Shown here: positions 2,354 to 23,960 of the stretch, piece by piece | How positions within the stretch are numbered: position 1 is the stretch's first letter | Layout of the letters: every line of letters starts with the position of its first letter | Source of the DNA: Changchengzhania lutea | GTDB taxonomy: Bacteria > Bacteroidota > Bacteroidia > Flavobacteriales > Flavobacteriaceae | Assembly (NCBI RefSeq): GCF_006974145.1 | Contig: NZ_CP039456.1 | Location: forward strand, 2,518,499-2,542,498 | DNA: 24,000 nt | Direction of reading: 5' to 3' | Notes under the pieces: model-generated | Told to the model about the DNA's origin: nothing | Database searches by the model: none | The model's input: the letters and a program-made list of their open reading frames with translations, nothing else | Translations under genes and position numbers: made by a program

Positions 2354-2420
2354 AGTTAAGAAAAATATTTGAATAAATTCAGTTCAGATTGAGTTTTTAG
2401 CAGAGTGAGTTTTAAAATGG

Positions 2421-7062: not shown

Positions 7063-7132
7063 TTTAAGCACTAAAGTTAGTAAATAAATCACAGATAGAA
7101 AGTCCGTGAGGGCTTTCGTAAATAGGCGAGAA

Positions 7133-8576
7133 CCCAATGTCATTAAGTTAAGGTTTTTCAAATGCTATCTTTCTGATTTTTAGTTATTTTTGGTTTGGTT
7201 CTAGTTCTATATTTAGCCAAATCTCTTTTAAATGACCGATTAGGTCTTATAGGAACCATGTTTTCCATAAATAGCTGTTTGAGTTCATTCAGCGGTTCTT
7301 CTATTGAGCTTTCGGTAAAAAATAATTCTACAACTCTATTTTTTAAAAAACCATAGGAGAGGTTTTTGTTAATTTTGTAATCTAATCTTCTTTGTTTATT
7401 CTTTTCTGCTATTTCATCTTCTAACTCACTGACAATTAGTCTTTGTATGTTACTAATAAATAGAGCTGCGTAAAAATCTTGTAGAATACTTTGTTTAGAG
7501 TATCCAGAAAAATGTTCTACTTTCAGTTTGTTTTTTAACTCGTCATAAAATGTTTCTACATTCCATCGTTTGTAATAAAGTGATTTAAATATGCTGTTGG
7601 GATAACTTTTAATATCGTACAAAGAGGTCATTAATATTTCAACCTGCCCTTTTGGTAGTTCTACTCTGATAAGCCTTACTTTGATAGGTTTTGATTTATC
7701 TAAACCTTTATCTGATTGTTTTATGTATATACCAGGACTTATGGTTACTATTTGAGACTTTTTTTTGCTTTTTTCAAAATTGATAATAAGTTTGCTAAAG
7801 CCTATCTGCACACGTATTACATAATCCAAATTATTGGTAATGTGATATTTGATAAAATCATATGATGGATATCCTCTATCGTAGAGTATTAAATCACCTT
7901 GCTTACAATGGGTTAAATGTGAGAGTGCCATAGCGCGTTCGCCTTGACTTACTGGCGCTAGTTCACCATCTATAACATAATTGTTTTCCAGATCATATAA
8001 AACAGAACATCTTGCTTGTACGATACTCGTTGTGGTATGGTTTTTTGTTTCCCCAAAATATGACTTTAGTTCTTTTGTTAGTGGTAAAGTAACCCGAGAA
8101 CCATCTACTGCCAACAGTCTAAATCCTTTCCAAGTTTTAATAGCGCACTCATTATCTGTATAAAACTCTTCTATTAAAGTATGTGAAAGATGTTTAAATA
8201 CTATAGGGCTTATTTTCTTTCGCGCTTGTACAAAAGCACTTTTGGTAAACTTTTGGGTTGGACTTATTTTTAAAAAACTTAAAAAATTTTCTAATTCAAG
8301 GGATAAACTTTTACGTAGCATATTCAACATAAGTAGTAAGATAGTAGAAAATTCTTGTTTTCGTTTACGTGTAAAGTCCTTTTCTGAAATTCTAAATTCA
8401 GTTTTTAATGTGTCATTGAATAATTCTGCTTTTAATTTCTTAAAAATTAAAATAGTAGTTTTTTTTCATCTTTATAATTGGTTGATTACCAATTAAATAT
8501 ACGAATAAATTTACAAAAAAACAAATTTAAACTACTGTGAATCAACTAATTAACACCTTAACTTAATGACATTGGG
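7133..8576 (-). mobile_element. IS4-family insertion sequence with perfect 22-bp terminal inverted repeats
   Basis: CCCAATGTCATTAAGTTAAGGT at 7133-7154 has an exact reverse complement at 8555-8576. A single DDE transposase gene lies inside. I see no clean target-site duplication. Confidence 0.85.
7158..8330 (-). CDS. IS4-family DDE transposase
   Basis: 390 aa. It has LLAVDGS (first D), YDRGY (second D region) and the Y-x2-R-x3-E-x6-K signature in YYKRWNVETFYDELK. Confidence 0.9.
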   Translation of the reverse strand: MLNMLRKSLSLELENFLSFLKISPTQKFTKSAFVQARKKISPIVFKHLSHTLIEEFYTDNECAIKTWKGFRLLAVDGSRVTLPLTKELKSYFGETKNHTTTSIVQARCSVLYDLENNYVIDGELAPVSQGERAMALSHLTHCKQGDLILYDRGYPSYDFIKYHITNNLDYVIRVQIGFSKLIINFEKSKKKSQIVTISPGIYIKQSDKGLDKSKPIKVRLIRVELPKGQVEILMTSLYDIKSYPNSIFKSLYYKRWNVETFYDELKNKLKVEHFSGYSKQSILQDFYAALFISNIQRLIVSELEDEIAEKNKQRRLDYKINKNLSYGFLKNRVVELFFTESSIEEPLNELKQLFMENMVPIRPNRSFKRDLAKYRTRTKPKITKNQKDSI

Positions 8577-8793: not shown

Positions 8794-9609
8794 TTGGAGC
8801 AAAGTTTTTCCATTAATGGCAAAGCCAAAAGCACCTTAAACAATTACCTCAGGTGTTTGGCTCACCTTGCTTTGCATTATAAGCAGAGTCCCGAAACACT
8901 CTCTGTAGAAAGCATTGAATCTTACCTTTATTACTGCCAAAAACTTCACAAAACGCCTTCTGAAAGTTTCTTTAAACACACCATTTTCGGTCTTAGAGCC
9001 GCCTATAAGGTTATGGGTATGGCGGGTAAACGTGTGGCGTTACCTCAAATTAAACGCGACTTAAAACTGCCGATAGTTTTGAGCCAAGATGAAGTGAAAC
9101 GTCTTTTAAAAGCGCCCAAGCATCTAAAACACCGTTTAATTATTGGCATGCTTTACGGCTGCGGACTTCGTAGCTACGAGTTGTGTGACTTAAAACTGTC
9201 AGACATCGATTTTGATCGGAAAACCGTATTTATTCCCAAGAAAAAAGGGAAGATTGATCGTTATGTACCTTTAAGCAAGTTCTTAATCAGAGGGCTGAAT
9301 ACGTACATCAAAACTGAAAATCCTCAAATCTATCTTTTTAACAGTCAGGTCACCAAACAAGGAAAGCCTCAAGGGCTTACCACCAATGGCATCCGCTGGG
9401 TAATTAAAGAAAGCCGTAGTAAAATAGGCAGTTCCAAAAAGATAACCGCCCACACCTTTGCCACACATTTGTTGGAATACGGTGTAAACCTAGTGAGTTT
9501 AAAAGAACTTTTGGGACATGCGCATATTGAAATGACTTTAACCTATCTGCATGTGGCCAATCTACCCAGTGGTTCGAAATTTTCTCCACTGGACAAACTC
9601 TACGATTAA
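8794..9609 (+). CDS. Tyrosine recombinase/integrase accompanying the IS91-family transposase (5' end apparently frameshifted)
   Basis: The catalytic region has R (GCGLRSYE), H-x-x-A (AHTFATHLL) and LLGHAHIEMTLTYLHV (Y). The reading frame stays open upstream to 8713, but the only ATG (8718) is out of frame across an A8 run (see findings). Confidence 0.8.
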   Translation: MEQSFSINGKAKSTLNNYLRCLAHLALHYKQSPETLSVESIESYLYYCQKLHKTPSESFFKHTIFGLRAAYKVMGMAGKRVALPQIKRDLKLPIVLSQDEVKRLLKAPKHLKHRLIIGMLYGCGLRSYELCDLKLSDIDFDRKTVFIPKKKGKIDRYVPLSKFLIRGLNTYIKTENPQIYLFNSQVTKQGKPQGLTTNGIRWVIKESRSKIGSSKKITAHTFATHLLEYGVNLVSLKELLGHAHIEMTLTYLHVANLPSGSKFSPLDKLYD

Positions 9610-10748
9610 TGCGTTCCCGACATACGGTCGCTGACATTTTAGAGATGGAACAGCTACAGCTCAGCAACTTGAGCTTGACCTCTTGGCATTACCGAGCTTT
9701 GCAGGCCATCAGGAGGTGCCGCACCAAAGCGATGGGCGGTCATATTGATAAATGCGATTGTTGCCACGCATTGCACATCAGTTACAACAGTTGCAGGAAC
9801 AGACATTGCCCAACCTGCCAAGGACATAAACGTGAAGAGTGGATTCGGGCACGAGAAGGCGAACTTTTAAATGTTCCTTATTTTCATTTGGTGTTTACCA
9901 TTCCAAGTGAGTTTAACAGTTATGCTTTGAGCCACGGAAAAATAGTGTACGGTAGTTTGTTTAGGGCAGCATGGCAGACTTTACAGCAATTTGGCAACAA
10001 TCCCAAACACTTGGGTGGAAGCATGGGGATGATTGCAGTGCTGCATACTTGGGGTCAGAATATGAGTTTGCACCCGCACTTGCACTGCATTGTGCCAGGG
10101 GGTGGTTTGAGTCAATCTGGAAGATGGAAAAAGGCAAAGAACAATGGTAACTACTTGTTCAATGTAAAATCCATGAGCCAAGTGTTTCGAGCAAAATATA
10201 TAGCAGAACTCAGAAAGAATGACTTAAAAATTCCTCAGAAAACATACAATGATCTGTTCGGTAAAAAATGGGTGGTTTATGCCAAACAACCTTTTAGAAG
10301 TCCAAAATATGTGATAGAATACTTGGGTAGATATACCCACAAAATAGCGATTAGCAACCATCGGATTAGGGATGTGGATTGTAAAAATAAGAAGGTCACT
10401 TTTACTGCCAAGGATTACCGTCGTGCTGGTAAGAAAACCAATTTAACAGTATCAAGTGCGGAGTTTATTAGGCGCTTTGCCATGCATATTTTACCCAAAG
10501 GATTTACCCGCATACGGCATTATGGCATTTTAAGCAGCCCTTGGAAAAAGGAGAAACTACCAAAACTACAAGCTGAACTGGCTACAGTAAAAATAGAATG
10601 TATTAAAACAGACAACCCCGTTTTGCACCGCCAATGTCCTGTTTGTAAAAAGGGAAGACTACATACCATTTTATTGTTTAATGAACGTGGACCACCCGAA
10701 AATTGGCGCGTTTTACTAAAAGACAAAAAATTGAATATGAGTAACTAA
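9609..10748 (+). CDS. IS91-family HUH (Y2) rolling-circle transposase
   Basis: 379 aa. It has an N-terminal Cys-rich zinc-binding region (CDCCH ... CRNRHCPTCQ), an HUH motif in LHPHLHCIVPGGG and a Y2 region YLGRYTHKIAISN. Its start overlaps the recombinase stop. Confidence 0.9.
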   Translation: MRSRHTVADILEMEQLQLSNLSLTSWHYRALQAIRRCRTKAMGGHIDKCDCCHALHISYNSCRNRHCPTCQGHKREEWIRAREGELLNVPYFHLVFTIPSEFNSYALSHGKIVYGSLFRAAWQTLQQFGNNPKHLGGSMGMIAVLHTWGQNMSLHPHLHCIVPGGGLSQSGRWKKAKNNGNYLFNVKSMSQVFRAKYIAELRKNDLKIPQKTYNDLFGKKWVVYAKQPFRSPKYVIEYLGRYTHKIAISNHRIRDVDCKNKKVTFTAKDYRRAGKKTNLTVSSAEFIRRFAMHILPKGFTRIRHYGILSSPWKKEKLPKLQAELATVKIECIKTDNPVLHRQCPVCKKGRLHTILLFNERGPPENWRVLLKDKKLNMSN

Positions 10749-12182: not shown

Positions 12183-12207
12183 TTTTTAGTTAAGATGTTT
12201 TTAATTG

Positions 12208-12279
12208 TTGCCAACGTTAGTATAACTAGTCATAGCACCCTACGGGATGCTACGATAGTTATACTAACGTTGTGGGCAA
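12208..12279. repeat. 72-bp attC-like hairpin (PE7): TTGCCAACGTTAGTATAACTA ... TAGTTATACTAACGTTGTGGGCAA
   Basis: A perfect 16-bp outer stem (12213-12228 with 12256-12271) encloses an inner stem carrying two single-nt bulges and one A:C mismatch, then the loop CCC-TAC-GGG. Both termini contain AACGTT. Confidence 0.7.
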
Positions 12280-12646
12280 GTTCTTTAAAGAGAAAACCCG
12301 GCTCGTTTTTAGCATTTTGGAATTCAATTTCCGCCAAGCCCGGGCGTAAAAACCCAATTTTTTTGGCGCACAAAAACGAAAATTCCAGCTAACGTTCCTG
12401 CCTGTTTGTTAATGTCGTTCCCTGGCGGATGAGCAAGGTTGCGGATATTTTTTTGGCCGTTTCCCTTTTTCGGGGTTCGGTAACTGAATTTCCGTTTTTT
12501 ACCAGTGGCCTTTTTCCATCTGCCAACTGCCGAAACTCCAATCTGGGCGCTTTATTTTTTTGGCCGTTGTTTATCTGCAATATAAAAAATCGGGTTTTTG
12601 GACAATGGCCACTGGTTTTTTGCCAACTATTTGCGTAATGGGTCAA
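12280..12646. other. ORF-free hub between oppositely oriented gene blocks; T-tract/GGC repeats and degenerate PE fragments
   Basis: There is no credible ORF. ATTTTTTTGGCCGTT occurs at about 12447 and 12554, and AATTTTTTTGGCGCAC at about 12356. A short inverted pair CCAGCTAACG/CGTTCCCTGG is present. The region is bounded by the inverted copies TGTGGGCAAGTT (12271-12282) and AACCTGCCCACA (12647-12658). Confidence 0.4.
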
Positions 12647-12658
12647 AACCTGCCCACA

Positions 12659-14525
12659 GTCGAGTAAGCCAGGGGATTTTCACCCCTAACTTCTCACAGA
12701 ACCGTACGTGAACCTCTCAATTCATACGGCTCTTATTATGTAGTCAATAGTTAGGTTAACTGATAACCCAACGCCCAATGATAAAACATATTTGGATAAT
12801 CTTTAGTAATACGTCTTAACCATTTTACGGCTAAAACCCGACTTCTTTTGAAGCGTTTATACTTGTTCAAAATCCATTTAATAATGCGATGATGGAGATA
12901 GTAAAAAACAGGTTTAAGAGCGTTACGCTTTATTTTCCCATAATAATTTATCCAACCCCTAATTTTAGGGTTTAGCATAAATGCTAGGTCTTGTAAATTA
13001 GATTGAGTTTTGTTATGAATGTTCAATTCCCTTAAATCTTTTAGAATTCGCTTCTTAGATTTTCGGCTCATCTTACAATCATATTGTAAAAAGAATCCTC
13101 CCTTTCTTAGTTTAATCATAATAGGACGGAAACTAAAACCTAGAAAATCAAACTGCACTGGTAATCCTTTTAGATTTCTTCCCTGTTTCTTGCAGTACAC
13201 TATTTTCGTCTTTTGCGGATGAACACGGAGCCCACATTGCTTAAAACGTTCGGTTACTTTATCAAGCAAATACTTTGCTTCCCGTTGTGTGCTGCAATGA
13301 ATAATCATATCATCAGCATAACGAACCATTTGTATTTCAGGAAAATGACTTGCAAGCCATTTATCTATACAATAATGTAAAAACAAATTGGATAGCAATG
13401 GACTAATTACTCCTCCCTGCGGAGTTCCTTTTCCTTTTGAGTGTATTAATGTACCATCTTCAAGTTGGATAGGTGCTTCTAACCATCTCTTAATATACAT
13501 TTGCACCCATGTTTCAGGAACATGAACTTGTAGCGCTTTAAAGAGTAATTCGTGGTTGACATTCTCAAAAAATTCTTGAATATCTAAATCTATTACCCAA
13601 CTGTATTTTCGTGCGTTTTTCTGCACTTCTTTTACAGCTTGGTGCGCACTCTTGTTTGGTCTATAACCATAAGAGTTGTCCATAAATTCAGCATCCAAGC
13701 GCGGTTCGATATACGTTTTGATAACCTGCTGTGCGATTCGGTCGCCAACCGTTGGGATTCCTAATGGACGTGTTTTACCGCCGTCTTTTGGAATATCTAC
13801 ACGTTTAACATTTGATGAAAAGTAACTCCCAGAAGATAACCGATTCCAGATTTTATACAATTCTTTAGAACGAACTTTTTCAAATTCCTCCAAGGTCCGT
13901 AAATCCACTCCAGCACTTCCTTTGTTCCTTTTTACCAGTTTATACGCATCCCATACCATCATCTTTGTAATGGGTACTGACTTTGTTTGTTCCTTAAAAA
14001 TCATCCTTACTTTTTAAGTTGTTTTTAATTCTAAACTACATAATTGAATCCCTTTGCTCCACTTCCATTACAGAGGCTTCAACACTAATACGGATTCATC
14101 CGCCACCTAAACAAATATTGGTAATCGCCTTACAGGTACTTCCTGCTTGGTTTTTCCCTTTCATACTTTGTTTAGGTTTCCTGTGTTCCAAAATAAAGCC
14201 TAAATAAAAGTCATGCCTCCTTTATGACGGTTGCCGTATAGCCAGTAATTAGGTTGCCGCTATACTTATCCCTAAAACCTCGATAGTCCTTAGGTTTTGA
14301 CAACAACTTGCCTTTTCGTCACTTCATCGGATGGTTCGCTTTCGCTCATCTCTCTTATTCACACCTGACTGTTTTAAACAGCCTTTTCTTCTATCGCTTC
14401 ATGCACCGTTGTTACCGCTGGCACATCATAAAAGTGGTTTGATTAGTGCTCCTAAAAGCCCTAATCGGAAGGTCTACTTCCATCTTAATTTTAGTTACGG
14501 TGTCAATAGACACCTCACAGCACAC
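12659..14525 (-). mobile_element. Group II intron I1 (distinct lineage from I2-I4)
   Basis: On the minus strand the 5' end reads GTGTGCTGTGAGG (14525 downward). Canonical domain V GAGCCGTATGAATTGAGAGGTTCACGTACGGTTC is at about 12697-12730. Domain VI has a bulged A 7 nt from the 3' end ...CTTACTCGAC (12659). The RT ORF lies in domain IV. Confidence 0.85.
12751..14004 (-). CDS. Group II intron reverse transcriptase/maturase (no endonuclease domain)
   Basis: 417 aa. The RT motifs are RPLGIPTVGDRIAQ, GTPQGGVISPLLSN and YADDMIIH, followed by a C-terminal maturase (X) region RGWINYY. Confidence 0.95.
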   Translation of the reverse strand: MIFKEQTKSVPITKMMVWDAYKLVKRNKGSAGVDLRTLEEFEKVRSKELYKIWNRLSSGSYFSSNVKRVDIPKDGGKTRPLGIPTVGDRIAQQVIKTYIEPRLDAEFMDNSYGYRPNKSAHQAVKEVQKNARKYSWVIDLDIQEFFENVNHELLFKALQVHVPETWVQMYIKRWLEAPIQLEDGTLIHSKGKGTPQGGVISPLLSNLFLHYCIDKWLASHFPEIQMVRYADDMIIHCSTQREAKYLLDKVTERFKQCGLRVHPQKTKIVYCKKQGRNLKGLPVQFDFLGFSFRPIMIKLRKGGFFLQYDCKMSRKSKKRILKDLRELNIHNKTQSNLQDLAFMLNPKIRGWINYYGKIKRNALKPVFYYLHHRIIKWILNKYKRFKRSRVLAVKWLRRITKDYPNMFYHWALGYQLT

Positions 14526-14530
14526 ATCGA

Positions 14531-16371
14531 GTAGACGGCTCTCCTGACTAAAGGAGAGTGCGCCTCTCACACCACCGTACGTACGGGTCTCGTATACGGC
14601 GGTTCGATAATGAAACTTATCGTTTGTAGTATTCAATTAAACTAACATAACCTTTCCTCTTTAAACGTTTTATGGTAATGGTAGTCCGTAGTATAGGACT
14701 TTGAGCGACTGCCCATCCTCCCATTCTTGTACGACTCCACGCATAGGCATGGTCTTGGTCAATTCCTAGACGAATCAGGTTTTTCCGTTTTCGTTCTGGT
14801 TTCTTCCAATGATGCCATATGCAATACCGTAATCGGTTTCTTAACCACTCTTCCAGCTTTTTAAGTTTCGCTTGAATGGATGCCGGTCTAAAGTAATTTA
14901 TCCAACCACGTATTAGCAGATTGATACGGTCGATACGTTCTTCAAAACTTGCGGGTATCGTCTTTTTGGTAAGGTATTTAAGCTTTGCTTTGAATTCCTT
15001 CCATTTGGACGGTTTTACCACCAGTTGATATTTACCTTTTTCTCCTTTCTTGTAGGTCGGTACAAAACCAAACCCTAATACTTGGAAACTTAAAGGCTTA
15101 CGTATACCACTTTTCTCCCTGTTTATTGGCAGTTGAAGTTTGTCTTTCAGGAACTTGTAGATACTGTTACCTACTCGTTTTGCAGACATTTTACTCTTAA
15201 CATAAATACTGAAGTCATCAGCGTATCTTACATAGCGATGTCCTCGTTGCTCTAATTCTTTATCCAACTCATTGAGCAGGATATTAGAGAGCAATGGACT
15301 TAAAGGCGAACCTTGTGGAACACCTTTTTTCCGTTTGTGTAATTTACCATTGATTAGTATCGGGGCTTTAAGAAAACAGCGCAGTAGCTTCATCGTCGGT
15401 TTACATTTTACCTTTTTGTAAATCAATTCTAAAAGAATATAGTGTTCTACTTCATCAAAGAAACTCTTTAAATCTATATCTACTATATCCTTAGAGCCTG
15501 AATTGATATTTTCTAGGCTCTGTGCAATTGCCTGATGGGCGTTGCGCTGTGGTCTGAATCCATAACTATGCTGTTGAAAGTCTGGCTCGAATATAGGTTG
15601 CAAAACTTGATGTAATGCTTGTTGAAACACCCTGTCAACAACCGTGGGAATACCGAGTAATCGTTTCTTCCCGTTGCTTTTTGGTATTTCAACGCCCAAT
15701 ATTGGAGACACCTGATACATCTCTCTTTCTATTTGCCAGATATATCGGTTACCTTGGGTTTGCAATATAGATTTGAGTTCAGTGATATGAACTCTGTCTA
15801 TGCCTGCTGAACCCTTGTTACGATATACCCGCTCATAGGCATAGTTTAGATTCTTTTTACTTGTTAATTGTTTAATCATTAATACTAAATTGATTTGCTG
15901 TCTCGCTTAATCAAAGGCTATTATTTTACTGGAAAGCTATCCGTAACGTAAAACAACTCCTGAGTTTATTAAAGACCATTATCGTTCTGTCCTTCACCAA
16001 CCTATCAGGCGGTCGGTTACTATGACTTCTGCTGACTTCTCTACTTTACCAACTCGTGGTTATAGAGACCTCCCCAGGTAATGGCATCTTCTTTCACTCA
16101 ATCGCTGCCGTATCTACATAAATACACTTTTGGTAATCTTTTGGGCGTTACAATGATGTGCTTGCTTACCCGTGCATAAATGCCTCGTATACGGTTTCTG
16201 TTCGTCAGTACCGAGCTTTGTAGTCCTGCTTCCTTTAGTCCTAGTTTCGCAACTAGCAACCTTGCAGCTTACTAATGGTTCAAGGCCGTACCCCTGCCCA
16301 TAAGGGACTTGCACCCTCTAGATTAATTATTTACCTTTCGGTAAATTTAAAGATGCCCATGCTGGGCACAC
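14531..16371 (-). mobile_element. Group II intron I2 (class C-like; related to I3/I4)
   Basis: The 5' end is GTGTGCCCAGCATGGGCATC (16371 downward). Domain V is CCGCCGTATACGAGACCCGTACGTACGGTGG. The terminal hairpin CTCTCC...GGAGAG covaries with that of I3/I4. The 3' end is ...CCGTCTAC (14531). Boundaries are +/-2 nt. Confidence 0.85.
14617..15879 (-). CDS. Group II intron reverse transcriptase/maturase (no endonuclease domain)
   Basis: 420 aa with the motifs RLLGIPTVVDRVFQ, GVPQGSPLSPLLSN, YADDFSIY and RGWINYF. Confidence 0.95.
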   Translation of the reverse strand: MIKQLTSKKNLNYAYERVYRNKGSAGIDRVHITELKSILQTQGNRYIWQIEREMYQVSPILGVEIPKSNGKKRLLGIPTVVDRVFQQALHQVLQPIFEPDFQQHSYGFRPQRNAHQAIAQSLENINSGSKDIVDIDLKSFFDEVEHYILLELIYKKVKCKPTMKLLRCFLKAPILINGKLHKRKKGVPQGSPLSPLLSNILLNELDKELEQRGHRYVRYADDFSIYVKSKMSAKRVGNSIYKFLKDKLQLPINREKSGIRKPLSFQVLGFGFVPTYKKGEKGKYQLVVKPSKWKEFKAKLKYLTKKTIPASFEERIDRINLLIRGWINYFRPASIQAKLKKLEEWLRNRLRYCIWHHWKKPERKRKNLIRLGIDQDHAYAWSRTRMGGWAVAQSPILRTTITIKRLKRKGYVSLIEYYKR

Positions 16372-16568
16372 ACAATGGCTATAGTTAATACGGGTTTTGG
16401 CGCTTAACCCAAAGTTTGGTGTATTTTTATAAAGTCCGCCAAATCTTTTGATTTGGCTTTAGAACAAAAAAGATAAAACAAAATAAAAAGTTTTGGCTAA
16501 TTGCTTAATCGGAAATTAATTACTTTTAATTCCCGTACTAACCATAGCCGAGACGTTGCCAGTAATGC
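16372..16568. repeat. Palindromic element PE8 (about 190-bp type)
   Basis: The 18-nt arms GGCTATAGTTAATACGGG (16377-16394) and CCCGTACTAACCATAGCC (16532-16549) give 16 Watson-Crick pairs plus 2 A:C. The central hairpin GCCAAATC-TTTT-GATTTGGC is at 16438-16457. The right terminus is ACGTTGCCAGTAATGC. Its left terminus is interrupted by introns I2 and I1. Confidence 0.7.
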
Positions 16569-16632
16569 AAAAAAACCGTTTTCAATCAAATAATTAAGTT
16601 AAAAATTGTATTTTTGATTAAATACTCGAATT

Positions 16633-16869
16633 ATGGATTTACAAACTAGAAAACTCAATTTAATAACCTATTTGGCTCAAATTAAGGACGAAATATTTTT
16701 TGATAAACTAGAAAATTATATCCTAAAGAAAGAAGTTGAACATAATCCAGGCTTAAAACCATTTACTGTTGAGGAGTTAATCAATAGAATTGAGAAGTCT
16801 GAATTGGATTTAAAAAACGGAAACTTTAAAAGTCAAGAAGATTTAGAGAAAATATCTGCAAATTGGTAG
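16633..16869 (+). CDS. Putative antitoxin partner of the ParE/RelE-family toxin
   Basis: This 78-aa acidic protein lies immediately upstream of the toxin gene, with its stop 2 nt before the toxin ATG. The assignment is by position; I cannot name the family. Confidence 0.6.
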   Translation: MDLQTRKLNLITYLAQIKDEIFFDKLENYILKKEVEHNPGLKPFTVEELINRIEKSELDLKNGNFKSQEDLEKISANW

Positions 16870-16871
16870 GA

Positions 16872-17189
16872 ATGAAAATAGTTTGGACTGATTTTGCTAT
16901 CAGAAATTTAAAGGACATTTTTGACTATTATTCTACTAAAGCTAATAAAAAGGTTGCTCATAAAATTAGAAGACAAATCCTTAAATCTTCAAAACAGCTT
17001 AAAAATAATCCGAATTCTGGCCCAATTGAATCAAGCCTCACAATACTTAAGAAAAATCATAGGTATTTAGTGAGCGGAAACTACAAATTGATTTACAGAC
17101 TAATAGATAATCAAGTAATAATAAATGATGTTTTTGACACAAGGCAAAATCCATCTAAAATGAATGATGAAAAGCGAAAAGCGGAATAA
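16872..17189 (+). CDS. Type II toxin, ParE/RelE family
   Basis: About 105 aa counted from the ATG at 16872 (MKIVWTDFAIRNLKDIFDYY ... YRLIYRL ... VFD.R). The pattern is typical of plasmid-stabilisation ParE-like toxins. The tracked ORF start at 16863 is a TTG that overlaps the antitoxin stop. Confidence 0.8.
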   Translation: MKIVWTDFAIRNLKDIFDYYSTKANKKVAHKIRRQILKSSKQLKNNPNSGPIESSLTILKKNHRYLVSGNYKLIYRLIDNQVIINDVFDTRQNPSKMNDEKRKAE

Positions 17190-17235
17190 AGCACTACTGG
17201 CAACACCGTGTCCTATGAAAAGCACTAGCCTAGTT

Positions 17236-18660
17236 CTTCAAAGTTAATATTTATTTTTTTAATTATCTCATAATGATGATTCTGTGGTGTTGGAATGTTG
17301 ATAATTCCGATAGGATTATCAATATTTCAATCGCCTTTAAATAACTTGCTCCGCATCCTATATGTGATCCATTGTAAAACTTGATGGTCACCAGCATCTG
17401 TATGATTATAAGTTATAATAAACCTGGCCACTTGCTATAAATGTGTGATACCTATTAATCTGGTTCACCTACGGTGTTCTGTGATACAGGTTTTGCTACT
17501 TCTTTGTGAGCTTGGTTATTGATTTATATTATTCTATAACACCTATGGTGTAGGGTGTTTCTGTTTTTATGACCGCTAAGGTTCTACTCAATAATTTACG
17601 TGCTATTTTCACTATGATGCTCTTTGCGTTCTTCCCTACGTGTTTTCTATAATAGGCTTGCATCACAGGATCTGTACGTATGGCTTGCCATGAGGCTTCT
17701 ATAAAATAACTCCGCATTAATCGGTGTGCTCGCATGGTAATGCCTGTGTGCCTTTGGTTGTCTCCACTTTGGTGAATTCCTGGTGCTAGACCTACATAGC
17801 CCGCCAAACGTTTTATGCTATTAAAGCGGCGCAAATCTCCCAACTCGCAGATGATACCACAAGCGACAATACCTCCTATTCCTGGAATACTGCGTAAAAG
17901 ATAATAGTCCTTTTTATAATGCTTGCGACAATAAGCCCGAAGTTTGGTAGACACATCGCGTAATTCCTTATCTATAAATCTGAAGTTTCGCATCCTGCTA
18001 TCCAAAGTCTCTCGAGCTGTGGGATGACTAAAAGTCAAGGCGTCTAGCCAATCTCTAAATTTATGACTCCAATGATCATTATCAAAGGCCTCTGGAATGC
18101 TTACGCCAAAATACAATAACTGCATTTTTATGTAACTCTTCACCCGTCTAAAATCCTTGACCAAGTCGTTGCGTCTTCTAAAAAGACTACGTAGTTGCTC
18201 ACGCTCTACTTCTGGAATAGTAATACTCTCCAATCTGCCATCCTTTAGTTCTCTGGCTATTAATTGGGCATCGATCTTATCGGTCTTGGTAAAGCGTTCT
18301 TTTCCCTTGCGATGGATATCTGCTGGATTTACAACCAGTGAGCGCCAGCCATATCCTTCAAAATTGCGATGGGCGTAATAACCACAGCAGCCTGCTTCGT
18401 AAGCTGTTGAAACTTCATGACCCTTAAAATGGGTAGTGACATACGTTTTTAATAACTCTGGCTTTGGTGGCATGGTAAAGGACTTTCCTGAAAATAAATC
18501 CGTAGCACAGTGAATTTTCCAACTACGTTTGTGAATGTCAATACCAATGTATAACTTTGGTTGGGCAGTAATTTGAGTGTTCATATCTTTTAAGTTTTTG
18601 TGAATTATAAAGATACTTGACTTACTGCTTTTTCATGGATGCTATAATTAATGGCTAGTT
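17236..18660 (-). mobile_element. IS110-family insertion sequence (IS1111-like layout: ~70-nt 5' and ~290-nt 3' non-coding ends)
   Basis: CTAGTT is present at both junctions (17230-17235 and 18655-18660). Removing 1425 bp restores a continuous PE arm. There are no terminal inverted repeats, as expected for this family. The boundary could equally be 17230-18654. Confidence 0.7.
17529..18584 (-). CDS. IS110-family DEDD transposase/recombinase
   Basis: 351 aa. The N-terminal RuvC-like DEDD domain (LYIGIDIHKRSW ... E ... NPADI ... KTDKIDA) is followed by a C-terminal Transposase_20 region (IPGIGGIVACGIICELGDLRRF ... GLAPGIHQSG). Confidence 0.95.
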   Translation of the reverse strand: MNTQITAQPKLYIGIDIHKRSWKIHCATDLFSGKSFTMPPKPELLKTYVTTHFKGHEVSTAYEAGCCGYYAHRNFEGYGWRSLVVNPADIHRKGKERFTKTDKIDAQLIARELKDGRLESITIPEVEREQLRSLFRRRNDLVKDFRRVKSYIKMQLLYFGVSIPEAFDNDHWSHKFRDWLDALTFSHPTARETLDSRMRNFRFIDKELRDVSTKLRAYCRKHYKKDYYLLRSIPGIGGIVACGIICELGDLRRFNSIKRLAGYVGLAPGIHQSGDNQRHTGITMRAHRLMRSYFIEASWQAIRTDPVMQAYYRKHVGKNAKSIIVKIARKLLSRTLAVIKTETPYTIGVIE

Positions 18661-18770
18661 TTAGGTTAATTAAGAAAATCCTCTCGGATTTTCTATCTGG
18701 TGTTTATTTGCTAAATTAGGTACTTAAACACGCCACTAATCATATACATAAACGTTAGCTTTAATTTAAA

Positions 18771-19133
18771 ATGCACCACGTTAAAGAATTTATAATAGAT
18801 AATAAAGACAAAATATTTGACTCAATTTCGGCTATTGGACTGATTCTTGACATGATAGGTGTTTATTTATTATTTAAGTTAAAAGATAAATATTTCGACA
18901 GACTAAAAATCGCATTTAAAATAGAACGTAAAATTCCATTTGCAGGAGATTCTAAACCTGTTAATTTAGTTAACTCATCTATAAGGATTTTAAAAAATGA
19001 ATTTAATGACATGATTAATGAATTAACTTTAAAAAACCAAGAAACGAGTAAAAAAGCCAACAAAGCAATGGTATTAATAATATTGGGTTTTGGATTACAG
19101 TTTTTAGTATATGCAATAAAGATATTTCACTAA
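18771..19133 (+). CDS. Hypothetical small membrane protein
   Basis: The 120 aa have hydrophobic segments near both ends (ISAIGLILDMIGVYLLF and MVLIILGFGLQFLVYAI). I recognise no family. Confidence 0.5.
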   Translation: MHHVKEFIIDNKDKIFDSISAIGLILDMIGVYLLFKLKDKYFDRLKIAFKIERKIPFAGDSKPVNLVNSSIRILKNEFNDMINELTLKNQETSKKANKAMVLIILGFGLQFLVYAIKIFH

Positions 19134-19270
19134 CTGAATAGTGTTTTGTAAAAAAAATATAAAAAGATATTGCGGTACCCATCAAAAAAATATGGAATAA
19201 AAGAAACATATAATCTGACTTTAAACCAAAAAAATAGATTATGATTAGAGCAAAAACTAAAGCTAATTGA

Positions 19271-21120
19271 GTAGACGGGTGACGACTTAAAAGTCGTCAC
19301 TGCGCCTCTCACACCACCGTACGTACGGGTCTCGTATACGGCGGTTCACCAAATTGAAGTTTGCGTATTATTAATGTAATCTAACAAAGGTTTATACCCT
19401 TTTCGTTTAAGTCTAGAGACTGTAATAGTAGTCTTTAGAATAGGACTTTGAGCAACTGCCCAGCCTCCCATTCTTGTTCTACTCCAAGCATAGGCTTGTC
19501 CGATTTCTATACCTAATTGAATTAGGTTTTTACGTTTCCGTTCTAGTTTCTTCCAATCGTGCCAAATACAATAGCGCAACCGATTTCTTAGCCACTCATC
19601 TAGCTTTTTACTTTTTGCATAGATGTTGGTTAAGCGGTAATTGTTCATCCAGCCTCGGCAGACTTGATTAAGTCGTTCGAGTCGTTCTAACAACGACATG
19701 GGTTTGGTTTTCTTGGTTATACTTTTTAGGTTACGTTTAAACTTTGCCCAACTTTTATTGGCTACCACTAGTACATATTGTCCTTTTACACCCTTTTTAT
19801 AGATGGGTACAAAACCATGCCCGAGTAACTCAAAGTTTACAGGTCTGCGGATGCCACTTTTGGCTTTGTTTATAGGTAATTTAAGTTTATCTTTTAAGAA
19901 GACAAACAGTCTATTTCCTATTTGTTTAGCCTCGCTTTTGCTTTTGGCGTAAACGCTAAAATCATCAGCGTAGCGAACATAACGCAAGCCCATGCTTTTC
20001 ATTTCTTTGTCCAAAACATCTAACATAATATTAGATAATAAGGGACTAATTGGACTGCCTTGCGGGATGCCTTTTCTGCGCTTTTGGAGTTTTCCATCTA
20101 TTAATATGGGAACTCTAAGCCATTTTCGGATTAATCGCAAAGTGGTCGGACATTTTACCTTGTGGTAAATAAGTTGCAGTAAGATACAGTGGTCTACTTG
20201 GTCAAAGAATCCTTCTAAATCAATATCTACAATATCTTGATAACCAGAATTGATATACGTTTGAGCTTGTAATACTGCTTTTTGGATGTTCTTTTGTGGA
20301 CGGAAACCGTAACTAACGGGTTCAAAATCATATTCAAAATGAACCATTAATTGTTGACTTACCGCTTTTTGAAGCCACCTATCGACTACAGTTGGTATTC
20401 CTAATAGTCGGGTTTTACCCTGTCCTTTTGGAATGGTTACTCCTAATATTGAATTTGGATTATAGCTGTTTGTGCGAATAGTCGATAGTATAGTCGAACG
20501 GTTTTCTAATATATAAGCGGAAAGCTCCGTTGTTTTCATACCATCTACACCGCTCGCGCCTTTATTGCGCTCCACTTGTCGTGTTGCTTTAAAAAGGTTT
20601 GTTGCTGATAATACGTTTTCAATCATAGGTTTAATAATTCGTGTACTCCTGTTGGTTTAAAACTAGGCTAGCTAGGCATCCTAATCGAATTCCAACGTAA
20701 TTTAATGTTCTGTCCTTCCCTACTTGTGAGACCATCTGAGGTATTGCCTCAACTCGTTTCCCGTAGGTACTATGACCTCTGCTGACTTCTCCAAATAACC
20801 AACTCGTAGTTTTGGAGACCTCCCCAGGTAATGACATCTTCTTTCTCTCAATCACTGCCGTATCTACATATTTACCCTTTTGGTGTTCGTTGGGCGTTAC
20901 AATGATGTGCTTGCTTACCCAAGTAAATATGCCTCTGTATACGATTTCTGTTCGTCAGTACCGAGTTTTGTAGTTCCGCTTCCTTCAGATAGAACCTCAC
21001 GGTTTTCACCCTTGCGACTTACTAATGCTTCAAGACGTTACTCCTGTACATAAGGGACTTGCACCCTCTAGATTAATTATTTACCTTTCCGTAAATAAAA
21101 GATGCCCATGCTGGGCACAC
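19271..21120 (-). mobile_element. Group II intron I3 (class C-like), identical copy of I4
   Basis: 1850 bp. The 5' end is GTGTGCCCAGCATGGGCATC (21120 downward). Domain V is CCGCCGTATACGAGACCCGTACGTACGGTGG. The terminal hairpin is GTGACGAC-TTTTAA-GTCGTCAC, and the 3' end is ...CCGTCTAC (19271). Confidence 0.85.
19346..20626 (-). CDS. Group II intron reverse transcriptase/maturase (no endonuclease domain)
   Basis: 426 aa with the motifs RLLGIPTVVDRWLQ, GIPQGSPISPLLSN, YADDFSVY and RGWMNNY. Confidence 0.95.
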   Translation of the reverse strand: MIENVLSATNLFKATRQVERNKGASGVDGMKTTELSAYILENRSTILSTIRTNSYNPNSILGVTIPKGQGKTRLLGIPTVVDRWLQKAVSQQLMVHFEYDFEPVSYGFRPQKNIQKAVLQAQTYINSGYQDIVDIDLEGFFDQVDHCILLQLIYHKVKCPTTLRLIRKWLRVPILIDGKLQKRRKGIPQGSPISPLLSNIMLDVLDKEMKSMGLRYVRYADDFSVYAKSKSEAKQIGNRLFVFLKDKLKLPINKAKSGIRRPVNFELLGHGFVPIYKKGVKGQYVLVVANKSWAKFKRNLKSITKKTKPMSLLERLERLNQVCRGWMNNYRLTNIYAKSKKLDEWLRNRLRYCIWHDWKKLERKRKNLIQLGIEIGQAYAWSRTRMGGWAVAQSPILKTTITVSRLKRKGYKPLLDYINNTQTSIW

Positions 21121-21256
21121 ACAACGTATAACAGCAAATAGCGGGTATTGTACTGAAAATTGTCATTTCAGAGATCAAGTAACAAACCACAAAACCGACA
21201 AGAACGTGTCCTTACTCCACGCCACTTGCGTTATACAAGACCGTTGCCATTAATAC
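21121..21256. repeat. Palindromic element PE11 (about 135 bp)
   Basis: Arm GTATAACAGCAAATAGCGGG (21126-21145) pairs with arm CCACGCCACTTGCGTTATAC (21217-21236), with 2 A:C mismatches and 2 single-nt bulges. The central hairpin CTGAAA-N7-TTTCAG is at 21153-21171. The right terminus is CCGTTGCCATTAATAC. The left terminus GCTAATTGA (19262-19270) is separated from it by intron I3. Confidence 0.6.
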
Positions 21257-21289
21257 CAGAAAAACTTTGCGGATTGAAAAAAATGTACT

Positions 21290-21314
21290 AACTTTGTAAT
21301 TACAAAACAAAGTT
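21290..21314. promoter_or_regulatory. Candidate mazEF operator: nested palindromes AACTTTGT-N9-ACAAAGTT and TTGTAATTACAA
   Basis: These perfect inverted repeats end at the nucleotide before the antitoxin ATG (21315). Confidence 0.4.
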
Positions 21315-21560
21315 ATGGAAACAGCAATTATAAAAATTGGAAATTCAAAAGGTCTGCGTTTAAGCAAGACTATTTTGGAAAAATACAACATAAAAGACAA
21401 AGTCGAAATGATTTTAGAAAAAGGACAAATAATCCTAAAGCCAATTGATAGCCCAAGAAAAAATTGGGGAAAAGCGTTTGAAGAGATGCGTGAAAATAAT
21501 GATGACCGATTATTATTCAATGATGTCTTTGAGGACGAAAATTTTGAGGAATGGAATTAG
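21315..21560 (+). CDS. mazE: AbrB/MazE/SpoVT-family antitoxin
   Basis: 81 aa. The N-terminal swapped-hairpin motif (IIKIGNSKGLRLSKTILEKYNI) is followed by an acidic C-terminus. It overlaps the toxin gene by 10 nt. Confidence 0.8.
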   Translation: METAIIKIGNSKGLRLSKTILEKYNIKDKVEMILEKGQIILKPIDSPRKNWGKAFEEMRENNDDRLLFNDVFEDENFEEWN

Positions 21561-21874
21561 AACAGTATTCAATCGTACTCGTAAATCTTGACCCAACAAT
21601 AGGTAGCGAAATTAAAAAAACAAGACCTTGTGTAATTGTTTCGCCAAACGAAATTAATAAGTTTTTAAGAACAATCGTAGTTGCACCAATGACAACGAAC
21701 TTGAAAAATTATCCAACCAGAATTAAAGTAAAGCATAACGGAAAAAAAGGAATGATTGCAATCGACCAAATTCGGACAATTGACAAATCTCGAATAATAA
21801 AAAAGTTTGACCAATTATCGAAATCTGAAATACAGAAATGCAAAGATATTATCAGAGAAACTTTTGTGGATTAA
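21551..21874 (+). CDS. mazF: MazF/PemK-family endoribonuclease toxin
   Basis: 107 aa. VLVNLDPTIGSEIKKTRPCVIVSP ... VVAPMTT ... IDQIRTIDKSR is the typical PemK/MazF pattern. Confidence 0.9.
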   Translation: MELEQYSIVLVNLDPTIGSEIKKTRPCVIVSPNEINKFLRTIVVAPMTTNLKNYPTRIKVKHNGKKGMIAIDQIRTIDKSRIIKKFDQLSKSEIQKCKDIIRETFVD

Positions 21875-21919
21875 AACTGACTTTTGAACAAAAAAACGAA
21901 AAGTACTAATGCCAATTGA

Positions 21920-23769
21920 GTAGACGGGTGACGACTTAAAAGTCGTCACTGCGCCTCTCACACCACCGTACGTACGGGTCTCGTATACGGCGGTTCACCA
22001 AATTGAAGTTTGCGTATTATTAATGTAATCTAACAAAGGTTTATACCCTTTTCGTTTAAGTCTAGAGACTGTAATAGTAGTCTTTAGAATAGGACTTTGA
22101 GCAACTGCCCAGCCTCCCATTCTTGTTCTACTCCAAGCATAGGCTTGTCCGATTTCTATACCTAATTGAATTAGGTTTTTACGTTTCCGTTCTAGTTTCT
22201 TCCAATCGTGCCAAATACAATAGCGCAACCGATTTCTTAGCCACTCATCTAGCTTTTTACTTTTTGCATAGATGTTGGTTAAGCGGTAATTGTTCATCCA
22301 GCCTCGGCAGACTTGATTAAGTCGTTCGAGTCGTTCTAACAACGACATGGGTTTGGTTTTCTTGGTTATACTTTTTAGGTTACGTTTAAACTTTGCCCAA
22401 CTTTTATTGGCTACCACTAGTACATATTGTCCTTTTACACCCTTTTTATAGATGGGTACAAAACCATGCCCGAGTAACTCAAAGTTTACAGGTCTGCGGA
22501 TGCCACTTTTGGCTTTGTTTATAGGTAATTTAAGTTTATCTTTTAAGAAGACAAACAGTCTATTTCCTATTTGTTTAGCCTCGCTTTTGCTTTTGGCGTA
22601 AACGCTAAAATCATCAGCGTAGCGAACATAACGCAAGCCCATGCTTTTCATTTCTTTGTCCAAAACATCTAACATAATATTAGATAATAAGGGACTAATT
22701 GGACTGCCTTGCGGGATGCCTTTTCTGCGCTTTTGGAGTTTTCCATCTATTAATATGGGAACTCTAAGCCATTTTCGGATTAATCGCAAAGTGGTCGGAC
22801 ATTTTACCTTGTGGTAAATAAGTTGCAGTAAGATACAGTGGTCTACTTGGTCAAAGAATCCTTCTAAATCAATATCTACAATATCTTGATAACCAGAATT
22901 GATATACGTTTGAGCTTGTAATACTGCTTTTTGGATGTTCTTTTGTGGACGGAAACCGTAACTAACGGGTTCAAAATCATATTCAAAATGAACCATTAAT
23001 TGTTGACTTACCGCTTTTTGAAGCCACCTATCGACTACAGTTGGTATTCCTAATAGTCGGGTTTTACCCTGTCCTTTTGGAATGGTTACTCCTAATATTG
23101 AATTTGGATTATAGCTGTTTGTGCGAATAGTCGATAGTATAGTCGAACGGTTTTCTAATATATAAGCGGAAAGCTCCGTTGTTTTCATACCATCTACACC
23201 GCTCGCGCCTTTATTGCGCTCCACTTGTCGTGTTGCTTTAAAAAGGTTTGTTGCTGATAATACGTTTTCAATCATAGGTTTAATAATTCGTGTACTCCTG
23301 TTGGTTTAAAACTAGGCTAGCTAGGCATCCTAATCGAATTCCAACGTAATTTAATGTTCTGTCCTTCCCTACTTGTGAGACCATCTGAGGTATTGCCTCA
23401 ACTCGTTTCCCGTAGGTACTATGACCTCTGCTGACTTCTCCAAATAACCAACTCGTAGTTTTGGAGACCTCCCCAGGTAATGACATCTTCTTTCTCTCAA
23501 TCACTGCCGTATCTACATATTTACCCTTTTGGTGTTCGTTGGGCGTTACAATGATGTGCTTGCTTACCCAAGTAAATATGCCTCTGTATACGATTTCTGT
23601 TCGTCAGTACCGAGTTTTGTAGTTCCGCTTCCTTCAGATAGAACCTCACGGTTTTCACCCTTGCGACTTACTAATGCTTCAAGACGTTACTCCTGTACAT
23701 AAGGGACTTGCACCCTCTAGATTAATTATTTACCTTTCCGTAAATAAAAGATGCCCATGCTGGGCACAC
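21920..23769 (-). mobile_element. Group II intron I4, identical copy of I3
   Basis: It has the same 1850-bp sequence as 19271-21120 at a constant offset of 2649 bp, with identical encoded protein. The flanks differ, so these are two separate insertions. Confidence 0.85.
21995..23275 (-). CDS. Group II intron reverse transcriptase/maturase (no endonuclease domain)
   Basis: The 426 aa are identical to the product of 19346-20626. Confidence 0.95.
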   Translation of the reverse strand: MIENVLSATNLFKATRQVERNKGASGVDGMKTTELSAYILENRSTILSTIRTNSYNPNSILGVTIPKGQGKTRLLGIPTVVDRWLQKAVSQQLMVHFEYDFEPVSYGFRPQKNIQKAVLQAQTYINSGYQDIVDIDLEGFFDQVDHCILLQLIYHKVKCPTTLRLIRKWLRVPILIDGKLQKRRKGIPQGSPISPLLSNIMLDVLDKEMKSMGLRYVRYADDFSVYAKSKSEAKQIGNRLFVFLKDKLKLPINKAKSGIRRPVNFELLGHGFVPIYKKGVKGQYVLVVANKSWAKFKRNLKSITKKTKPMSLLERLERLNQVCRGWMNNYRLTNIYAKSKKLDEWLRNRLRYCIWHDWKKLERKRKNLIQLGIEIGQAYAWSRTRMGGWAVAQSPILKTTITVSRLKRKGYKPLLDYINNTQTSIW

Positions 23770-23960
23770 ACACTGTATATAGCAAATAGGGCATTCGGTG
23801 GTTTGTGAAACTTTGGTAGTTATTTGAAACACCGCCAAATCGTTGATTTGGCTTTTAAGAATGAGTAATTTAAAAACAAAATAAACGATTTGGCTCAGTG
23901 CAAACTTGAAAGTTTATCGCTTTCTACTGCCCTACTTGCCATATACTAACAGTTAGCCAC
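23770..23960. repeat. Palindromic element PE12 (about 190-bp type, homologous to PE8)
   Basis: The arms TATATAGCAAATAGGGCA (23776-23793) and TGCCCTACTTGCCATATA (23928-23945) give 16 Watson-Crick pairs plus 2 A:C, at the same relative positions as in PE8. The central hairpin GCCAAATC-GTT-GATTTGGC is at 23834-23852. The right terminus is CTAACAGTTAGCCAC. The left terminus GCCAATTGA (21911-21919) is separated from it by intron I4. Confidence 0.7.

Follow-up and report, generated by a model that had tools for sequence, protein, structure and literature searches.

The window analysed here is a stretch of 24,000 nucleotides from Changchengzhania lutea (contig NZ_CP039456.1, positions 2,518,499 to 2,542,498), and the question that it raises is how several group II introns came to occupy one and the same position in the long imperfect palindromes, here called PEs, that separate its small genes. 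The minus strand of the window contains four such introns (I1 to I4), each with an intact open reading frame (ORF) for a reverse transcriptase (RT)/maturase. The original prediction for this DNA, made from the letters alone, noted three of them, I2, I3 and I4, all of which are real, but omitted the fourth, I1, which is joined to the 3' end of I2. As detailed below, I2-I4 are very probably mobile introns of bacterial class C (IIC) that belong to a Bacteroidota-specific lineage and retrohome into the bottom-strand hairpin of attC-like sites in an integron-like array; they are best described as a lineage that works like the IIC-attC introns, the class C introns found in integron attC sites. The intron habit itself is known, and the greater novelty may lie in the recombinase of these arrays, which is not of the IntI type, and in the intron-on-intron lineage represented by I1.

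Boundaries and class of introns I2, I3 and I4

Intron I4 (21915-23769, minus strand, 1855 nt) begins with GTGTGCCC and ends with ...CCGTCTACTCAAT, its 3' end being placed by the Rfam family RF00029 (at 21915) and by analogy with I3. The intron-encoded protein (IEP) of I4 (21995-23275, minus strand, 426 aa, RT/maturase lacking an endonuclease domain) has the same sequence as that of I3 (19346-20626, minus strand, 426 aa). Intron I3 itself (19266-21120, minus strand, 1855 nt) matches RF02001 with 127 bits, RF01998 with 43.5 bits and RF00029 up to 19266, with the branch A in CUAC. Intron I2 (14526-16371, minus strand, 1846 nt) encodes an RT/maturase of 420 aa (14617-15879, minus strand) and ends with ...GCCGTCTACTCGAT, which directly abuts GTGTGCTGTG of I1. 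The motif GTGTGCCC occurs on the minus strand at 16371, 21120 and 23769, and the motif CCGTCTAC of the 3' region at 14538-14531, 19278-19271 and 21927-21920, with about 0.2 chance occurrences expected for either. The 5' junctions, which the original prediction quoted correctly as (T/G)TGT followed by GTGTGCCC, read ...CCATTGT, ...ACGTTGT and ...ACAGTGT immediately before that motif. Over the window, the Rfam search detects three complete D1-D4 ribozymes (RF02001, 123-127 bits) together with domains V and VI (DV-DVI, RF00029). Introns I3 and I4 are 100% identical over their whole length (1850 nt compared), which, as far as sequence can tell, points to a very recent copy event and hence to recent mobility, whereas I2 and I3 share 68% DNA identity and their IEPs are 60% identical. 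Homologues of the I3 IEP at 74-93% identity are found in marine Flavobacteriaceae. All the cassettes opposite to the introns are on the plus strand, as originally stated, namely a ParE toxin-antitoxin module (16633-17189), an unknown ORF located between introns (18771-19133) and MazEF (21315-21874).

A scan of one genome per species identified 74 loci with related introns in Flavobacteriaceae, Cyclobacteriaceae, Saprospiraceae, Chitinophagales and other Bacteroidota. Of 73 5' junctions, 71 end in TGT (one exception is a tandem junction), and TGT is preceded across the 73 junctions by a conserved arm, ...AGCAAT..TTATAYAC... In many of these loci, several intron copies are found within 20 kb, all pointing the same way and opposite to the genes next to them. 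No copies were detected away from PE-type hairpins in the 74-locus sample, in agreement with the link between intron and hairpin that had been proposed for the window.

The 3' ends are located 5 nt beyond the boundary given in the original prediction, so that the introns end in ...CCGTCTACTC(G/A)AT/T (here and below, a slash outside brackets marks an insertion point), and five lines of evidence agree on this placement. The RF00029 alignment reaches 19266 in I3 and 21915 in I4, running through TCAAT, with a bulged, unpaired branch A in CUAC 7 nt before the end, followed by four paired bases and a terminal AU. The reference introns inserted in the aadA2, aadA22 and blaIMP-4 attC sites of class 1 integrons end in ...GGCUACCCGAU, after which the known attC sequence, TAGAC or TAGAA, resumes; non-attC class C introns end in ...CUACUCGAU or ...CUACCCGAU. 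In the relatives, TCGAT is present in 44 of the 46 3' ends, the downstream bases vary, and a T stands right after TCGAT except where a second intron follows in tandem. Uninvaded sites on the same strand have the form ...TAYAY-N(1-3)-TGT/T[AG].. in 124 cases and TGT followed by TCRAT in one. Finally, the GTT box that pairs with the AAC box of the hairpin is completed by the 3' exon only under the revised boundary. Thus, judging from these comparisons, TC(G/A)AT is the intron end and the insertion site is NTGT/intron/T(A/G)(G/T).. at all three junctions. The junctions still coincide after the shift, so the claim of a common insertion position stands, with the site corrected from TGT/TC to TGT/T.

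The competing placement of the 3' splice site before TC(G/A)AT, with TCRAT as a conserved part of the target, would be compatible with the terminal AY rule, which CUAC also fits, and with the presence of TCRAT at all three sites. Nevertheless, its probability is practically nil: RF00029 extends through TCAAT and places the bulged A 7 nt before the terminus, the 3' ends of known IIC and IIC-attC introns read CUAC(C/U)CGAU and are followed by known attC sequence, TCRAT is absent from uninvaded PEs (124 versus 1), the complementarity between neighbouring sites described below works only with the revised boundary, and CUCGAU serves as the paired 5' exon for the I1 lineage. On computational grounds this boundary is already refuted. 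The empty-site motif CGTTGTTCAAT that was proposed along with it does not exist as such, which is explained by TCRAT being intronic; the matches to TGTTCRAT in the window are at chance level and away from PEs.

Introns I2-I4 belong to class C by both protein and RNA criteria. In Pfam searches, their IEPs (420-426 aa) consist of RVT_1 and GIIM only, without an endonuclease domain. The best PDB matches, over the full length, are the GsI-IIC RT (6.5e-92, obtained with the I3 IEP) and the Eubacterium rectale IIC maturase (2.5e-90), compared with 1.8e-32 for LtrA (IIA) and 9.8e-30 for IIB. The families RF02001, RF01998 and RF00029 match I2-I4 and also five known IIC or IIC-attC introns, and the termini are GUGUG at the 5' end and CUACUC(G/A)AU, with the A bulged, at the 3' end. 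The class C assignment made in the original prediction is therefore sustained by the ribozyme, which carries the class C-type Rfam signature, as well as by the IEP tree discussed below, in which these proteins group with the IIC references.

PE hairpins as attC-type sites of an integron-like array

When 69 uninvaded PEs are aligned, two motifs show no variation, AAC close to the 5' end and TGTT close to the 3' end, and the consensus structure consists of a 5-bp R stem (xAACG/TGTTx), an internal loop of 5 x 2-3 nt, an L stem of at least 16 bp and a variable centre. Compensatory changes are found in 12 of the 20 consensus pairs, and the evidence for the hairpin rests on this covariation rather than on minimum free energy (MFE) folding, by which 67% of the 5' exons fold into a hairpin (compared to 12% of random positions) versus nearly all junctions by motif. 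Of the two strands, the bottom one forms the more stable fold in 62 of the 69 PEs (mean -19.1 kcal/mol, versus -16.0 for the top strand, p = 5e-11). It also contains conserved G-U pairs, that is, G-T wobbles (68/69, 69/69 and 56/69), which correspond to C-A mismatches on the other strand. Conserved wobbles are located at alignment columns 13/141, 25/131, 26/130 and 31/126, and they look like a built-in means of making one strand fold. Together with the greater stability of the bottom strand, the wobbles are independent support for single-strand folding of the PEs; intron occupancy, which had been cited as support for such folding in vivo, allows a fair inference in the same direction.

Beyond their fold, the PEs carry the signature of cassettes. 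The 9 bases after GTT (R'') match the complement of R' of the next PE, which is the other end of the same cassette, at 6.06 of 9 positions on average, whereas the control values are 2.96/9 for the own R' and 2.86/9 for a random R'; the next-site score is at least 7/9 in 55 of 89 pairs, and the leftover mismatch is a systematic G-T wobble. The chain is repeated in five recombinase-anchored loci (scores of 8/9 recur in L088 and L091). In the window it runs over 10-11 nt from the I4 site to the I3 site, then to a site bearing an IS110-family element and on to the I2 site, and it ends where R'' of the I2/I1 site, GTTGTGGGCAGG, is complementary to R' of a short PE, CTTGCCCACAAC. Such a chain across cassettes is what is expected if cassette circles insert by crossover inside the GTT/AAC triplet, and it typifies integron cassettes. 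By its palindrome and its cassette structure alike, the PE is, at the level of sequence analysis, an attC-type cassette recombination site and not merely a hairpin.

A covariance model (CM) built from the PEs and run on the window locates the individual sites. On the minus strand, the PE invaded by I4 (23770-23960; CM match 23778-23943) starts with R' GTGGCTAAC and continues with a long imperfect stem to ...TATACAGTGT at the insertion point, with R'' at 21914-21905 (TGGCATTAGT); reconstituted, it folds at -35.8 kcal/mol. The PE invaded by I3 (21121-21254; CM 39.8 bits, E 3e-06) runs from R' ATGGCAAC to TTATACGTTGT, with R'' at 19265-19256 (TAGCTTTAGT), and the one invaded by I2 and I1 (16372-16566) from R' CTGGCAAC to TATAGCCATTGT, with R'' located after I1, at 12658-12649 (TGTGGGCAGG). 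Also on the minus strand are a PE with the IS110-family element in its 3' arm (17191-18767, with TGT/T at 17203/17202; CM 76.2 bits, E 2.7e-13) and the short uninvaded PE of about 80 nt (12204-12285; CM 27.4 bits), which ends ...TAACGT/TGGCAAC and lacks the TGT motif. Two uninvaded PEs belong to an oppositely oriented array in which the bottom strand is the plus strand, namely 1588-1733, ending ...CACTGTGT/TGTGGTGCG (CM 82.6 bits, E 1.5e-14), and 2417-2557, ending ...TATACGGTGT/TACCAAACG (CM 105.3 bits, E 5.9e-19).

In the folded PE, the insertion point separates two T residues, the partners of the second and the first A of AAC, respectively; it thus lies at the stem foot, within the R box. 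As the original prediction proposed, this behaviour mirrors that of IIC-attC introns: insertion occurs at NTGT/T of the R'' GTT, on the bottom strand and antisense, with the same geometry as in the introns of the aadA2, aadA22 and blaIMP-4 attC sites. The terminal loop of a D1 subdomain is GCACAUCA in I2-I4 and GCACAAGA, with ACAA, in the class 1 integron introns, for which the intron-binding site 1 (IBS1) is TTGT. Because the two loops match in position, the exon-binding site 1 (EBS1) of I2-I4 is predicted to be ACA(U), pairing with (N)UGU. The expected complementarity of ACAA to the junction is thus borne out for the invariant ACA:UGU pairing and not for the fourth base, which is U, making it ACAU. 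An 11-nt loop, GACGAACAGAAA, was considered as EBS1 and rejected in favour of GCACAUCA, given where the latter lies in the RF02001 structure and how it compares with the ACAA loop of the IIC-attC references, a choice that also agrees with the EBS1 loop of the Oceanobacillus iheyensis intron. Upstream of TGT the sequence is variable, as might be expected if no IBS2 were present.

These features are compatible with the following route of insertion. The intron ribonucleoprotein would recognise the folded single-stranded bottom strand of the PE, with the long stem substituting for the EBS2/IBS2 pairing, the 3-4 nt EBS1, ACA(U), pairing with (N)TGT at the 3' foot of the stem, and EBS3 presumably pairing with the T at +1. 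Reverse splicing between GT and T of the conserved R'' GTT would then leave the intron antisense to the cassettes. As the IEP has no endonuclease domain, priming presumably would be from the nascent strand at the replication fork, the source of primers for endonuclease-minus introns (PMC4424553). In IIC-attC introns, the attC bottom-strand hairpin similarly stands in for IBS2 (PMC7923331), and the insertion point of these introns is TTGT/T in R'' of the attC bottom strand, their orientation being opposite to that of the cassettes, also in arrays without an integrase (PMC7923331, PMC3001079).

No IntI is encoded in the window. Two tyrosine recombinases present there were rejected as the array integrase, the one at 9-1307 being CTnDOT-like and the one at 8794-9609 accompanying an IS91 transposase. 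The array end in three intron-centred loci adjoins a tyrosine recombinase of 378-388 aa that borders core genes (e.g., pnp or polA), and in five further loci fetched by that recombinase, PE arrays are located immediately downstream, co-oriented, and none upstream. An Xer-like recombinase of 370-388 aa with an N-terminal extension of about 100 aa is therefore found at the array head, co-oriented with the cassettes, in all 8 loci examined (L034, 14378-15514; L011, 4463-5629; L025, 13045-14181; L088-L092, 10001-11140). The proteins from these loci match TIGR02249 in two stretches with 180-207 bits, below the cutoff of 265; they have 23 residues where VchIntIA has 66, lacking the IntI-specific insertion, and align unbroken to XerA and XerC-like proteins. 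Homologues occur widely among Flavobacteriaceae, and the one from Zobellia is named "Integron-related Integrase" in one source. From the conserved synteny, this recombinase may be the one by which the cassettes are moved. In the array neighbourhoods, to which the search was confined, no canonical integron integrase turned up. Thus, the array is integron-like in its sites and cassettes, and its putative integrase, in the loci examined, is not that of an integron. In the IntegronFinder 2.0 census, a single complete integron is recorded in Bacteroidetes, in Salinibacter; none is reported for Flavobacteriaceae in the integron censuses consulted, and the literature search on such integrons found nothing relevant.

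Two other explanations of I2-I4 have to be weighed. Given that most IIC introns insert after terminator stem-loops (PMC4424553) and that the PEs lie directly 3' of ORFs, the hairpins might be Rho-independent terminators, or palindromes of the repetitive extragenic (REP-like) kind, and the introns terminator-targeting IIC introns whose likeness to attC invaders is coincidental. This appears very improbable, because the hairpins are imperfect palindromes of 80-190 nt that lack a T-run and contain an internal loop and invariant AAC...GTT boxes, the introns run opposite to the genes upstream of them, and the arrays begin beside a tyrosine recombinase in 8/8 cases; moreover, R'' is complementary to R' across the cassette and not to its own R', which is unexpected for terminators. 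The other possibility is also unlikely, if less so. It holds that I2-I4 are classical IIC-attC introns, of the lineage that includes S.ma.I2 and Kl.pn.I3, and that they sit in a common type of chromosomal integron or in a cluster of attC sites lacking an integrase (CALIN), so that only the host would be new. It agrees with the same insertion point (GT/T of R''), strand and orientation (PMC7923331), with near-identical 5' ends, G-U-(G/A)-(U/C)-GCCCAGCAUGGGCAU, and with the typical cassette cargo of the array (e.g., the ParE and MazEF toxin-antitoxin pairs). The IEP phylogeny, however, argues otherwise. In a neighbour-joining tree (411 columns, 100 bootstraps, three IIC-attC references, rooted with I1), the Bacteroidota IEPs including I2 and I3 form one clade with 100% support, whereas the three IEPs from class 1 integron introns form a separate clade (100%) that is joined with other proteobacterial and Firmicute IIC IEPs (98%); a joint clade of Bacteroidota and IIC-attC proteins was recovered in 0 of the 100 bootstraps of this tree with its three IIC-attC references. 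By identity, the IIC-attC references (35-36%) are no closer than non-attC IIC introns (37-41%). The array-head recombinase without the IntI insertion and the lone Salinibacter integron in the census also run counter to this explanation. In the literature, IIC-attC introns are defined as a monophyletic subset of class C, found in Proteobacteria and few others, and the published tree of these introns includes Bacteroides and Microscilla introns as non-attC class C sequences, again contrary to a classical affiliation. Thus, on the sequences compared, I2-I4 behave as IIC-attC introns in every respect considered and fall outside the IIC-attC clade. An intron from Sinorhizobium meliloti (L087) was tried as a class D outgroup and rejected, since it grouped inside IIC; hence the root on I1 only.

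Several observations weigh against a distinct Bacteroidota lineage retrohoming into attC-like hairpins, the explanation preferred here. Folding by MFE finds the long stem in only two thirds of cases, the AT-rich stem being under-detected. At position -4 of IBS1, where all four bases are present in the sample, T predominates and does not pair with the U of ACAU, so that only 3 bp are constant, and because TGT never varies, covariation is uninformative on EBS1; EBS3 was not located in I2-I4. The tree is a neighbour-joining one with few references and is rooted on I1, to which no class is given. The attC label of the PEs depends on structure and on the cassette signature, with no canonical integron integrase near any array. 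Splicing, boundaries and mobility are all deduced from sequence.

The presence of strong uninvaded PEs on the plus strand, flanking cassettes of the minus-strand orientation, implies that the window contains two oppositely oriented array segments, one with the PEs at 1588-1733 and 2417-2557 (plus strand) and the other at 12204-23960 (minus strand), separated by IS4, IS91 with its recombinase, and IS110 remnants. This arrangement suggests an inversion, or a rearrangement mediated by insertion sequences (IS), of one array. The leftmost PE has R' GCGCAGTCTGAC, with GAC instead of AAC, a form that recurs at PEs in L001, L013 and L039 and may be a mark of array ends. About half of the PEs in the right-hand array of the window are occupied by introns or IS. 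A complete IS110-family copy (approximately 17215-18638, transposase 17529-18584) lies inside a PE, antisense to the cassettes, and a deleted copy (6531-7055) lies in a PE remnant (6490-7144); IS110 copies in PEs are also found in the Zobellia and Algibacter arrays (L089 and L092). These insertions are reminiscent of the IS1111-attC group, which targets integron attC sites. The IS91-family element located between the segments (8794-10748) encodes a Y2 transposase and its own tyrosine recombinase and has a G+C content of 39-43%, compared to about 32% around it; the same type of element is present twice in a Zobellia array (L090, 14500-16400 and 17840-19845). The cassette at 12286-12658 (373 bp), bounded by the I2/I1 PE and the short PE, contains no convincing ORF; it is higher in G+C than its surroundings and has repeated GGCCAAAAAAAT-like motifs and an 18-nt inverted repeat (12501-12518 and 12599-12616). 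Related arrays include defence-type cassettes, namely a Lamassu LmuB-like gene, a DNA methylase with an ATPase, and SMEK/CTD10 (positions L001 12412-14262, L091 11704-15158 and L090 11328-14219). Storage of anti-phage systems is a feature reported for chromosomal integrons, and these cassettes echo such reports.

Intron I1 on the 3' end of I2

Intron I1 (12659-14525, minus strand; IEP 12751-14004) is a group II intron of another lineage that starts at the base after the last base of I2. Its D1-D4 region matches a different Rfam family from that of I2-I4 (RF01999, with DV-DVI in RF00029; Rfam match 12659-14481), and its IEP is 33% identical to those of I2 and I3. In the first set of loci, all 8 I1-like 5' ends directly follow the 3' end of another intron, and an independent scan of metagenomes with the I1 IEP, which raised the total to 40 distinct copies, gives the same result: 40/40 are directly preceded by the 3' end of another group II intron, nearly always of class C type. 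Relatives above approximately 59% identity are all preceded by ...CUAC(U/A)CGA(U/C), mostly of class C type with varied DVI, and the junction has the form ...GUCUACUCGAU/GUGUGCUGUG (loci L093-L165, L033, L064, L069 and L074). Two copies (L069 and L110) follow the 3' end of another I1-like intron, and the distant relatives (about 54%) have unrelated 5' exons.

The basis of this preference appears to be base pairing. The I1 loop AUCGAG complements the terminal CUCGAU of I2 (EBS1/IBS1), and the hairpin loop UAGAC complements GUCUA (EBS2), with UAGGU also present as EBS2 in the lineage. In L115 and L116, the 5' exon is CACGAU and the loop is AUCGUG, a compensatory change that supports the EBS1/IBS1 assignment. 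Thus, on sequence evidence, the I1 lineage appears to be intron-homing, its 5' exon being another intron with EBS/IBS complementarity, and it looks like a parasite of class C introns. Homing into other introns is known from Methanosarcina (PMC4424553); in the literature, to which access was limited, no account was found of a lineage that specifically targets class C introns at their 3' end, and the search on tandem class C introns found nothing relevant. Most likely, I2 entered the PE first and I1 would then have homed onto the I2 terminus through pairing of EBS2 and EBS1 with GUCUA-CUCGAU. In the alternative order, I2 inserted upstream of a resident I1, at TGT/G, by a mechanism that has been shown experimentally for another intron (PMC12584367), but this leaves unexplained why copies of the I1 lineage were never found without an upstream intron. 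A metagenome-assembled genome of Saprospiraceae (L064, L065, L067, L069 and L074) contains mini-introns of about 600 nt that lack an ORF; they belong to both the class C and the I1 families, are present in several copies and often form tandem pairs joined end to start.

Implications and comparison with known systems

Taken together, the observations allow a broader reading that we hold tentatively, at somewhat short of even confidence. Under this reading, marine Bacteroidota possess a cassette platform outside the standard integron censuses, with an Xer-like integrase that lacks the IntI domain and with long attC-like hairpins, and this platform would be subject to two-tier intron parasitism: a separate class C lineage that has arrived at, or retained, the GT/T bottom-strand target, and the I1 lineage that homes exclusively on the 3' terminus of those introns (GUCUA-CUCGAU) as a hyperparasite. 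If a lineage other than IIC-attC uses the same phosphodiester, the choice of target is either ancestral to class C or convergent; either way, if true, cassette sites would offer, in their folded bottom strand, a general single-stranded DNA structure that can be exploited in vivo beyond proteobacterial integrons. The introns are natural probes of which strand folds, and where, in the Bacteroidota cassette system. The recombinase of this system lacks the domain thought to be essential for attC recognition, and the long-standing question of how hairpin sites could be recognised without the IntI insertion becomes directly testable. For the annotation of PE arrays, the correct boundaries (TGT/T) are needed.

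The closest known counterparts of I2-I4 are the IIC-attC introns (S.ma.I2, Kl.pn.I3, N.e.I1 and G.s.I1; described by Quiroga, Centron, Leon and Roy), with which they share a class C ribozyme with an endonuclease-less IEP, bottom-strand insertion after the GT of the R'' GTT, in the orientation opposite to the cassettes, and occurrence also in arrays without a nearby integrase; tandem introns are likewise on record among them, in Shewanella putrefaciens. Unlike the IIC-attC introns, I2-I4 have IEPs that fall in a separate, Bacteroidota-only clade, an EBS1 that reads ACAU (not ACAA) with the IBS1 consensus NTGT, and the canonical start GUGUG, whereas class 1 integron introns start with GUACG; their target sites are longer, about 120 or about 185 nt, and are located in arrays headed by an Xer-like recombinase without the IntI insertion. 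The terminator-targeting IIC introns (B.h.I1, GsI-IIC and O.i.I1) have the same type of ribozyme and IEP, recognise a DNA stem-loop plus an IBS1 of 3-4 nt and have the 3' end CUACNCGAU; I2-I4 differ from them in that the target is a conserved recombination hairpin and the orientation is opposite to the neighbouring genes.

As for the sites, PEs resemble the attC sites of integrons, chromosomal integrons and CALINs in being imperfect palindromes with R and L boxes, AAC/GTT, an unpaired spacer and a variable loop, in the bias towards folding of the bottom strand, and in the match of R'' to the R' half at the start of the same cassette. Similarly to sedentary integrons and CALINs, the PE arrays are large arrays of small, mostly promoterless genes including toxin-antitoxin pairs. 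They are distinct from integrons in that the recombinase, which has the same orientation as the cassettes, is without the IntI-specific domain, and in that the complementarity of R'' and R' reaches 10-12 nt. Finally, I1 is comparable to intron-homing group II introns (the nested introns of Methanosarcina and twintrons), which also use the sequence of another intron as a homing site recognised through EBS1/EBS2; in contrast to these, I1 is inserted exactly at the 3' boundary of the resident intron, such that the two are in tandem and not nested, and the host intron is of another class.

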